Shown one piece after another: positions 3,001-4,415 of a DNA stretch of 4,415 nucleotides (positions are counted from its first letter, which is position 1; the number at the start of each line of letters is the position of its first letter). This DNA comes from a virus (Duplodnaviria > Heunggongvirae > Uroviricota > Caudoviricetes). Where the stretch lies: the IMG/VR virus record IMGVR_UViG_2693429662_000010, one strand, 5' to 3'. The position numbers are program-made.

Positions 3001-4415
3001 ATATCCGGCCTATGCAGCGGCAAATTATATAAAGGGACGGGTTGATGTGAAGTTTGATATTGGTGCTGATGGTACTGTCACCCGAATTGAGTTTATCCGT
3101 TCAGAGCCGCACCATCTGTTTGATGAGCAGGTTGTAAAGGCGATGGCAAAATGGCGATTTGAGAAGGACAGGCCGCGTAAAGGCGTGAAGAAAACGTTTA
3201 TCTTTAGTCCTTCTGCACCCTGATTATTTCATCAGAAATTAATTATCACTCTGTTGTTATTCTGTACATTCCGGCTGGGTAAGTCTTGTTCCGCCGGGTA
3301 TGAAGATGAAATATTGTTGGAGGACAGTGGGTACCTGCTCCTGTAACCGAACGTTCATTTCTCGTTATTTGTCATGCTGGCCGGACGCAGATGCGTTGCA
3401 TCTGTTGCCAGCCTTCTCCTGCAGGCTTCAATAACCCACGCTGAAAAGTTACCGGAACCTTTATGTTCAAGGGCGATATTGATCTGTTCAATCATGTGAT
3501 TGGGGAAACGGATATTGCGGATTGTGGTTCTGCGGGTCCGGTTTTTCGATGACATTTTCTTTCCTCTGGTGACAAGCTATATGGAGAGGATTTTACATGG
3601 CTGTGCTTCGTACGTTACCGGGCAGAATCAAAACTCTGAACACCCGGCGGGTGAATGTCCTGAAGGGTGAACAGCGTCGGGTCAGTGGTAGTGCCCGGGT
3701 TTCCCTCAAGCGTCGTATCTGGCTGAGGGATGCCGGACAGTGCTGTCTCTGTGGGCGTGTGGTTGACCTTTGTGACAGTGAACTTGAGCACCGCATTGCA
3801 CTTCAGTTCGGTGGTGGTAATGAGGAGACGAATCTCTGGACGCTCTGTACCGAATGCCATCGACAAAAGTCTGCTCGTGAAGCGGCGAGTGGTATGCCAG
3901 ACCCGACGCTGCCGGAGGTGTCCGGAGGTAGTGGCAGAGCGGACGACATCATCGGACTGTAACCCGACCCGGGGGGGGGTATCATCCGGCGTAAAAAAAG
4001 ATCGCTTTGGACACCGCCCCCCCTCTCACGCAGAGAAAAAATTCCCGTTTCAGGGCAGTTAACATGTTAACTGGCTGTCCGGGCATTTTTGCGGTTTTTA
4101 TCTTTATTATTCAGTTTGTTGTGCGGAAAAAATGTTAACTGGCTTTTTCAGCAAATGTTAACCAGGCAGCAGTTAACATTTGCGGCATGAGACGCCGGGA
4201 AAAATGGGCTGAACCATACCCGGCTGAGTGCGTTATGGACCCGGGAGGAGGCTGTGCTGACAACGCAAAAACGAAAATTTGCGCTGGCGCTCATGTCCGG
4301 GAAAAACAAAACAGCGTCAGCCATTGCCGTAATGCCAGTCAGTTAAGCAACTGACTGGCTCTTTTTCGGGGCTGTGGGGTATTTCCAGGGCCTCTCCTTT
4401 ACCACTCTCGGGAAG

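Follow-up and report, generated by a model that had tools for sequence, protein, structure and literature searches.

What is the function of the 291 bp of noncoding DNA (3963–4253) that separate an HNH nuclease gene from the GTG start codon at 4254, near the right-hand end of this viral sequence? The window, that is the whole stretch of 4,415 nucleotides that was analyzed, corresponds to the late-gene end of a prophage, a lambdoid siphovirus that resembles Stx phages and belongs to the Pankowvirus group (with phages 1717, BP-4795, 2851, and Lys8385Vzw). A megablast search with positions 3500–4415 retrieved 95 phage records at 90–99% identity, nearly all of them Stx-converting phages, and prophages in E. 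coli chromosomes match the whole window, at a median of four places per genome. A previous sequence-only reading had proposed that the gap, described as about 290 bp of noncoding DNA with a G9 tract, a C7 tract, an AT-rich segment, and palindromic repeats, is, together with the HNH gene that precedes it, a probable packaging-initiation (cos) locus. All of these elements are indeed present (table 1), the virion ends of relatives map inside the gap, and relatives display the predicted gene order. On this basis, we are confident, if short of certain, that the region is a cohesive-end packaging site (cos), flanked by the HNH gene on its left and by the small terminase gene (terS) on its right. Among the upstream genes, the lipoprotein receives conflicting annotations, its best PHROG (1267) being labelled “Rz-like spanin” when Pfam assigns it to TonB_C.

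Table 1. Genes of the window and features of the putative cos region; signed positions are relative to the terminus.
Feature	Position	Strand	Details
SASA-family esterase, C-terminal DUF6645 part	21–497		
Holin	648–863		
Lysozyme	863–1360		
Rz	1357–1794		
Rha/ORF11CD3 protein	2013–2561		
TonB_C lipoprotein, 108 aa	2897–3223		Pfam TonB_C, E 5e-15
DUF3950 protein	3355–3555	−	
HNH nuclease, 121 aa	3597–3962	+	Pfam PF01844, PHROG 589
G-run box (G9 + TATC)	3971–3983	+	−54 to −42
G9 tract	3971–3979		
Conserved GGACAC flank	4009–4014	+	directly left of the cut site
Predicted cosN, 10-nt 3′ cohesive-end sequence CGCCCCCCCT	4015–4024	+	Lys8385Vzw, fEg-Aba01, and Bcep176 in register
C7 tract	4017–4023		
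A-tract/CCCG box AGAAAAAATTCCCG	4034–4047	+	+10 to +23; candidate small-terminase site by HK97 analogy
Perfect 18-bp palindrome CAGTTAACATGTTAACTG	4056–4073		two GTTAAC half-sites, at +34 and +42
AT-rich stretch	4080–4159		GC 0.275–0.35 in 40-nt windows
AT-rich spacer with T/A tracts	4084–4129		GC 0.275–0.35
Three further AAATGTTAAC(T/C) sites	4130–4183		direct 4130–4142; converging pair 4151–4162 / 4172–4183
12-nt inverted arms	4151–4162 and 4172–4183		
Shine-Dalgarno GGGAGGAGG of terS	4243–4251	+	read from sequence; precedes the RefSeq terS GTG of relatives
terS, first 25 codons (Terminase_2 family), truncated	4254–4329	+	
IS4 end TAATGCCAGTCAGTTAAG...	4330–4415		interrupts terS; the window stops inside IS4

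The cut itself, which the sequence-only reading had been unable to identify, can be placed through Lys8385Vzw (MT225100; Zhang et al. 2021), an inducible Stx1 phage that has been positioned beside phage 1717 and for which a computational end mapping with PhageTerm gave a cos with the 3′ cohesive ends CGCCCCCCCT (PMC7946995). This 10-mer occurs once in the window, and since the Lys8385Vzw record ends with ...GGACACCGCCCCCCCT and begins with CTCACGCAGAGAAAAAATTCCC..., its terminus corresponds to the junction 4024/4025; taken with the sequence match, these termini assign cosN to the C7 tract (4015–4024). The predicted nicks would thus lie at 4024/4025 on the top strand and at 4014/4015 on the bottom strand. 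The two sequences share essentially the same site and the same HNH–cos–terS order, with 10 of 10 identical positions in the overhang, 228 of 229 between 4025 and 4253, and all 76 nucleotides of the terS fragment (4254–4329); from −18 to +229, a single base (4235) distinguishes the window from the inducible phage. In contrast, the left arm is only 85% identical (3963–4014), with a run of G7 rather than G9, and the HNH gene 92% identical at the nucleotide level to the Lys8385Vzw “putative DNase.” As identity shifts from 85–92% (3597–4014) to 99.6% (4025–4253), the cut site coincides with a mosaic boundary. A further difference concerns terS, which IS4 splits in the window and which is intact in Lys8385Vzw, a phage that makes virions. 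The site is of a known kind, and its sequence is already published for a near-identical phage. We did not count as virion-end evidence several contig ends that fall near 4008–4029 in the viral collection, because these are isolate-genome assemblies that stop next to homopolymers, nor the end of the phi330 record, which lies inside terS and is uninformative on cos. Within the close relatives themselves, the overhang takes three main forms among 75 of them (across L009–L088), namely CGCGCCCCCT (41 loci), CGCCCCCCGT (18), and CGCCCCCCCT (14), which raises the question of whether ends of different variants can anneal.

The same cut site is found, in register, well beyond E. coli. Using a related small terminase as a tblastn query, we retrieved phages of Acinetobacter and Burkholderia with records that begin a short way upstream of terS. 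The record of the Acinetobacter phage fEg-Aba01, whose ends were analyzed by PhageTerm and by heat/cool gel analysis and called HK97-type (PMC7354433), ends with ...GGACACCGCCCCCCAT, carries the annotated, experimentally supported 10-nt 3′ cohesive end CGCCCCCCAT, and begins with CGCACGCACAAAAAAAATTCCC; its flanks align in register with the window as GGACACCG... on the left of the cut and C.CACGCA.A.AAAAAATTCCC on its right, the latter side including a CNCACGCA-A-tract-TTCCC flank. Like the window, fEg-Aba01 also has a G-run box, three repeats (AAGTTAAA) between the cut and terS, and a Terminase_2-like small terminase; it differs by its host, by a small extra ORF between HNH and cos, and by its repeats, which are direct (AGTTAAA) when those of the window are palindromic (GTTAAC). 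In the record of the Burkholderia phage Bcep176, a 10-nt sequence is repeated at the two termini, with CTCACGCGCAGAAAATTTTCCC after it, again in register with the window. The right end (...GGGGGGGGGATCAAATC...ATGACCGCCGCCAAA) and left end of HK97 align with the window layout too, and so do those of SfV; the ends of SfI and SfV have been described as 10-nt and C-rich (PMC3636060).

Besides these phages, a scan of species-representative genomes returned 20 loci, from at least 12 genera, with small terminases 36–57% identical over the best segment (hosts: Kosakonia, Kluyvera, Atlantibacter, Rouxiella, Serratia, Phytobacter, Enterobacter, Citrobacter, Pantoea, Erwinia, Proteus, Buttiauxella, and an Acinetobacter MAG). 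Their order is HNH, G-run box, cosN, A-tract/CCC box, GTTAA(C) motif, and terS. When anchored on the terminus, nearly all of them show a G-run of 6–9 ending at about −46 and followed by TA, then GGACACCGC and a C-rich 10-mer, then CTCACGC-CAGAAAAAATTCCC, and finally a terS start of the form GGAGGGTGTAAAC-ATG-TTA-ACA at +39/+40; GGACACCGC is common to the window, most Enterobacterales loci, the Acinetobacter MAG, and fEg-Aba01. Among 16 diverse loci, the mean pairwise identity of the noncoding segment +1 to +38 (88.5%) is level with that of the best-conserved coding DNA (87.9% for terS nt 1–150), then comes −56 to −1 (70%), terS nt 151–450 (67%), and the DNA upstream of −57 (56%), a pattern that is expected of a cis-acting site. 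For Shiga-toxin and related prophages, a widespread family, the packaging cut is fixed to a 10-base sequence, at a site that Acinetobacter and Burkholderia phages and HK97 share in register. This helps to orient phage genomes, to predict which prophages may be packaged by which helpers, and to judge whether a prophage is defective.

Because HNH genes are mobile, their position alone is a weak guide to their function (a caution raised in PMC12315714), and one might suppose that the nuclease is a free-standing selfish or homing enzyme that landed beside the terminase, the gap being ordinary late-gene regulatory DNA; that two different HNH sub-types fill the slot left of cos in different genera could be read this way. 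The product of 3597–3962 is, as the earlier reading had it, a canonical HNH protein (Pfam 27.0 bits against a cut-off of 21.4; PHROG “HNH endonuclease,” E 9e-43; CxxC...H...N...CxxCH motifs) whose core aligns with the HNH domains of IscB and Cas9 in the PDB and which is 70% identical in amino acids to the HNH protein of FSL SP-016. Its gene stops 62 bp short of the terminus position. Wherever the sequence of a relative extends far enough, an HNH gene immediately precedes cos, and in all relatives examined, from Enterobacterales to Acinetobacter and Burkholderia phages, one lies immediately left of the same cos core. The HNH-next-to-terminase/cos adjacency of the HK97-type module is found in the window and in all of these relatives, and it is the arrangement reported for packaging HNH proteins, as far as the work of Kala et al. 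(2014) is related in PMC9410871. Regulatory DNA also fits the gap poorly: no sigma-70 promoter or terminator above chance was detected in 3963–4253, the one weak promoter-like match being within chance and the sole terminator-like hairpin lying inside the IS4 end, and we rejected both assignments. Together with the virion ends mapped inside the gap, these observations make a selfish nuclease highly improbable. The HNH gene is the last one before the right end of the virion chromosome and, by analogy, the positional counterpart of HK97 gp74.

What type of packaging does the locus support? In intact relatives, the terminase genes that the earlier reading hoped to find downstream are present, in the order HNH, about 290 bp, terS (Terminase_2), terL, protease–capsid fusion, small ORF, and portal; terL falls outside the window because IS4 intervenes. 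The TerL of these relatives belongs to the same Pfam families (PF03354 and PF20441) as HK97 gp2 and can be aligned to it (E 7e-12). HK97 further resembles the window family by having HNH as its final gene ahead of the right end, a 10-nt 3′ overhang, a G9 run followed by ATCA some 43–46 nt left of the terminus, ACCGCC at the start of the overhang region, and, roughly 20 nt to the right of the cut, an A/T-tract with CCCG, at the place where the HK97 small terminase binds. Unlike in the window family, however, HK97 gp1 has no Pfam match, terS starts at +50, there is no GTTAAC array, and the order of the head genes differs, the protease–capsid fusion preceding the portal in relatives of the window. 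Since the HNH proteins are only weakly similar (24% identity to gp74, E 0.06) and no similarity between the small terminase and gp1 was detectable, we extend the HK97 mechanism to the window on the grounds of analogy and synteny, without assuming that all of the parts are orthologous.

The cos of phage lambda offers another point of comparison. In lambda, the overhangs are 5′ and 12 nt long, and gpNu1 and IHF take part without any need for an HNH protein. The lambda cosQ–cosN–cosB layout does resemble that of the window, in that a left element and a staggered-nick site come first, then repeats and their AT-rich spacer, then the small terminase gene, and the Terminase_2 family also includes the headful (pac) phages SPP1 and SF6, to which PDB matches are weak. 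Yet relatives of the window have defined 10-nt 3′ ends, cos by PhageTerm and gel, together with a TerL of the HK97 families; the lambda cosN sequence GGGCGGCGACCT is absent from the gap; and no match to the IHF consensus WATCAANNNNTTR with at most one mismatch was found in 3963–4253, so that an IHF site in the AT-rich spacer was rejected, although the spacer may be intrinsically bent. We therefore give almost no credit to the possibility that the locus supports headful packaging or lambda-type packaging with 5′ overhangs and IHF assistance. The earlier assignment to a cosN/cosB-type region holds as regards a cos, with ends mapped in relatives, but the length and polarity of the overhang are of the HK97 rather than the lambda type.

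While the position and polarity of the ends at 4024/4025 are those mapped in relatives, the roles of the proteins can be proposed from HK97, in which gp74 stimulates cos cleavage and the small terminase binds just right of the cut (PMC9410871, PMC11331095). By analogy, the small terminase would bind right of the cut, either at the A-tract/CCCG box or at the five GTTAAC sites (+32 to +159), and would position the large terminase, which together with the HNH protein would introduce two nicks 10 nt apart and leave the 3′ overhangs CGCCCCCCCT. The HNH protein may either stimulate cleavage or make one of the two nicks. Packaging would then proceed rightward from 4025 through terS and end at the next cos, which would make HNH the last gene packaged; a small terminase bound at that next cos may stall the motor for the terminal cut, with the left arm (G-run box, −54 to −46) possibly serving termination or nuclease positioning.

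Whether this copy of the prophage still uses its site is another matter. The earlier reading considered that the small terminase gene was not clearly present, when its start can in fact be recognized: the 25 codons that begin with the GTG (4254–4329) are identical to those of full-length, 187-aa relatives, which match Pfam Terminase_2 (PF03592; 35.8 bits, cut-off 26.1), and the alignment with relatives diverges from 4330, at the end of an IS4 element. The 30-aa ORF that remains at the terS start in the window, a truncated fragment, has no Pfam match. Copies of IS4 that match this end (4330–4415) exist in 2,601 E. coli genomes. A comparison with 5,426 complete E. coli genomes and 80 related viral loci gave no instance of the terS/IS4 junction (4329/4330); terS is intact in L009, a relative with 99.9% identity to window positions 2097–4329. 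As a side observation, the stretch of ~30 nt that precedes the junction (GGGAAAAACAAAACAGC...) is similar to the sequence that borders the common bamD–raiA IS4 copy (GAAACACAAAACGGC...), a likeness that fits the known target preference of IS4.

Given that IS4 splits terS after codon 25, this prophage is probably unable to package itself without a related helper, and its cos may never be used in cis. A decayed prophage had been named beforehand as a finding that would speak against the cos proposal: the copy is probably defective indeed, but its cos DNA is intact. It is accordingly quite possible, if somewhat short of an even chance, that the site is a dead relic here, never cut, the interruption of terS and the termination of the window inside IS4 being what recommends this view. 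It must be set against the single base that separates −18 to +229 from an inducible phage, the full-length HNH gene, and the potential for cutting by a co-resident phage of the same terminase specificity, in a family that is multicopy in many E. coli genomes. Moreover, a relic status concerns the present activity of the site and not its identity.

If the region is a cos, which of its elements could be recognized by the packaging proteins? On the right of the cut, the A-tract/CCCG box is one candidate for binding by the small terminase, on account of its location where the HK97 small terminase binds, the minimal HK97 binding site being +15 to +29, CTAACCCGATTTTTT (PMC11331095). The other candidate is the GTTAAC array. 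The 8-mer ATGTTAAC (extended consensus of the units: AAATGTTAACTGG) occurs five times in the window, always within 4058–4179, against 0.23 copies expected, and none of 200 shuffles reached five copies. Among 68 distinct close relatives, the five GTTAAC sites are invariant when neighboring spacer positions vary, and only one of the 18 positions of the palindrome changes; the 4130–4183 sites have a mean conservation of 99% among close relatives. The palindrome and these three sites could thus form a cosB-like array.

The origin of this array has a bearing on its function. Most genera possess one GTAAACATGTTAAC, which overlaps with the start codon of terS, and the palindrome is, to judge from the alignment, homologous to this motif: window positions 4058–4083 align with the terS start region of relatives with a 28-nt gap, and the terS of the window lineage starts 190 bp beyond this ancestral start. 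Since TGTCCGGG recurs at 4076–4083 and 4294–4301 and the ATGTTAAC units have a common TGGCT flank, the array probably derives from a duplication of the terS 5′ end. One could then argue that the right half of the region (4056–4253) is merely a decayed by-product of this duplication and not a functional binding array, the functional cos extending only from about −60 to +47 and the terS start having moved about 190 bp downstream. The homology and the repeats just described are compatible with such a scenario, as are the terS starts of most relatives, at +39/+40 inside GTAAAC-ATG-TTA-ACA, and the absence of the extra 190 bp from FSL SP-016 and 16 other loci. We nonetheless consider it unlikely in view of the invariance of the five sites next to variable spacer positions, and of three lineages (Proteus, Pantoea BAV, and fEg-Aba01 with its three AAGTTAAA) in which the start region lacks GTTAAC and separate GTTAA(C) copies are kept at about +31 to +65, which suggests selection on the motif. 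These separate copies and this invariance favor recognition by the small terminase; there is, in our estimate, about an even chance that the GTTAAC sites are such recognition sites, in the manner of lambda cosB. An origin by duplication and a later use as binding sites are compatible, and both can be true.

On the left of the cut, the G-run box is a conserved element. In 19 diverse loci, in fEg-Aba01, and in Bcep176, the last base of a run of at least five G lies no more than a few bases from −46, and in HK97 and SfV it lies at −43/−42; the run measures 6–9 nt in the Enterobacterales loci and fEg-Aba01, and its length is hypervariable (7–11 G) among 75 close relatives. The box may be involved in termination or nuclease positioning, with a cosQ-like role or a role in recognition by TerL/HNH. 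We also considered that the G-run and the C-run present in cosN may pair into a conserved hairpin or constitute a symmetric site. Such a pairing holds in the window (7 nt) and in SfV (8 nt), but we rejected it as a rule, since the G-run is kept without any C-run in cosN by HK97, Bcep176, Phytobacter, and Erwinia typographi. As regards individual sequences, the G-box of SfV (L092/L091), GGGGCGGG, is the exact reverse complement of the SfV cos core CCCGCCCC, and the G9 of the window (3971–3979) mirrors its C7 (4017–4023).

Taken together, the G-run box and the GTTAA(C) motif may be viewed as two cos sub-sites of HNH-dependent terminases, a joint reading that we put forward tentatively, as somewhat doubtful. 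The G-run box, which holds an almost constant distance from the cut (about −54 to −42) even in HK97, SfV, Bcep176, and fEg-Aba01, despite their differing small terminases, would be a target of the conserved TerL/HNH pair or have a part in termination like that of lambda cosQ. The GTTAA(C) motif, at about +35 to +47 and usually overlapping the terS start, would be what small terminases of the Terminase_2 type recognize, and in the Stx phages of E. coli a duplication of the terS 5′ end would have brought it to five copies, generating a new lambda-like cosB. Our search of the literature for cos sub-sites (cosQ) in HK97 returned references to lambda only, and no description of a G-run box or of GTTAA(C) sub-sites for HNH-dependent terminases was found in searchable papers; both elements represent modest new leads on how these terminases recognize DNA.

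Two further features of the left arm may be mentioned. In most Enterobacterales relatives (L093–L110), the 8-mer GTAAACAT is found on both sides of the cut, at −34 and +33, that is ~67 bp apart, and the left copy has decayed to GTAAAAAAAG in the window. In PPompW prophages (L008, 1546–3004), the G-run of the cos left arm is directly bordered by ISEc20, an element of the IS110 family, at the equivalent of window position ~3975, and the stretch running from the Q/tRNA region to cos is absent, including the lysis genes and HNH, so that these prophages have kept cos and the terminase without the HNH gene.
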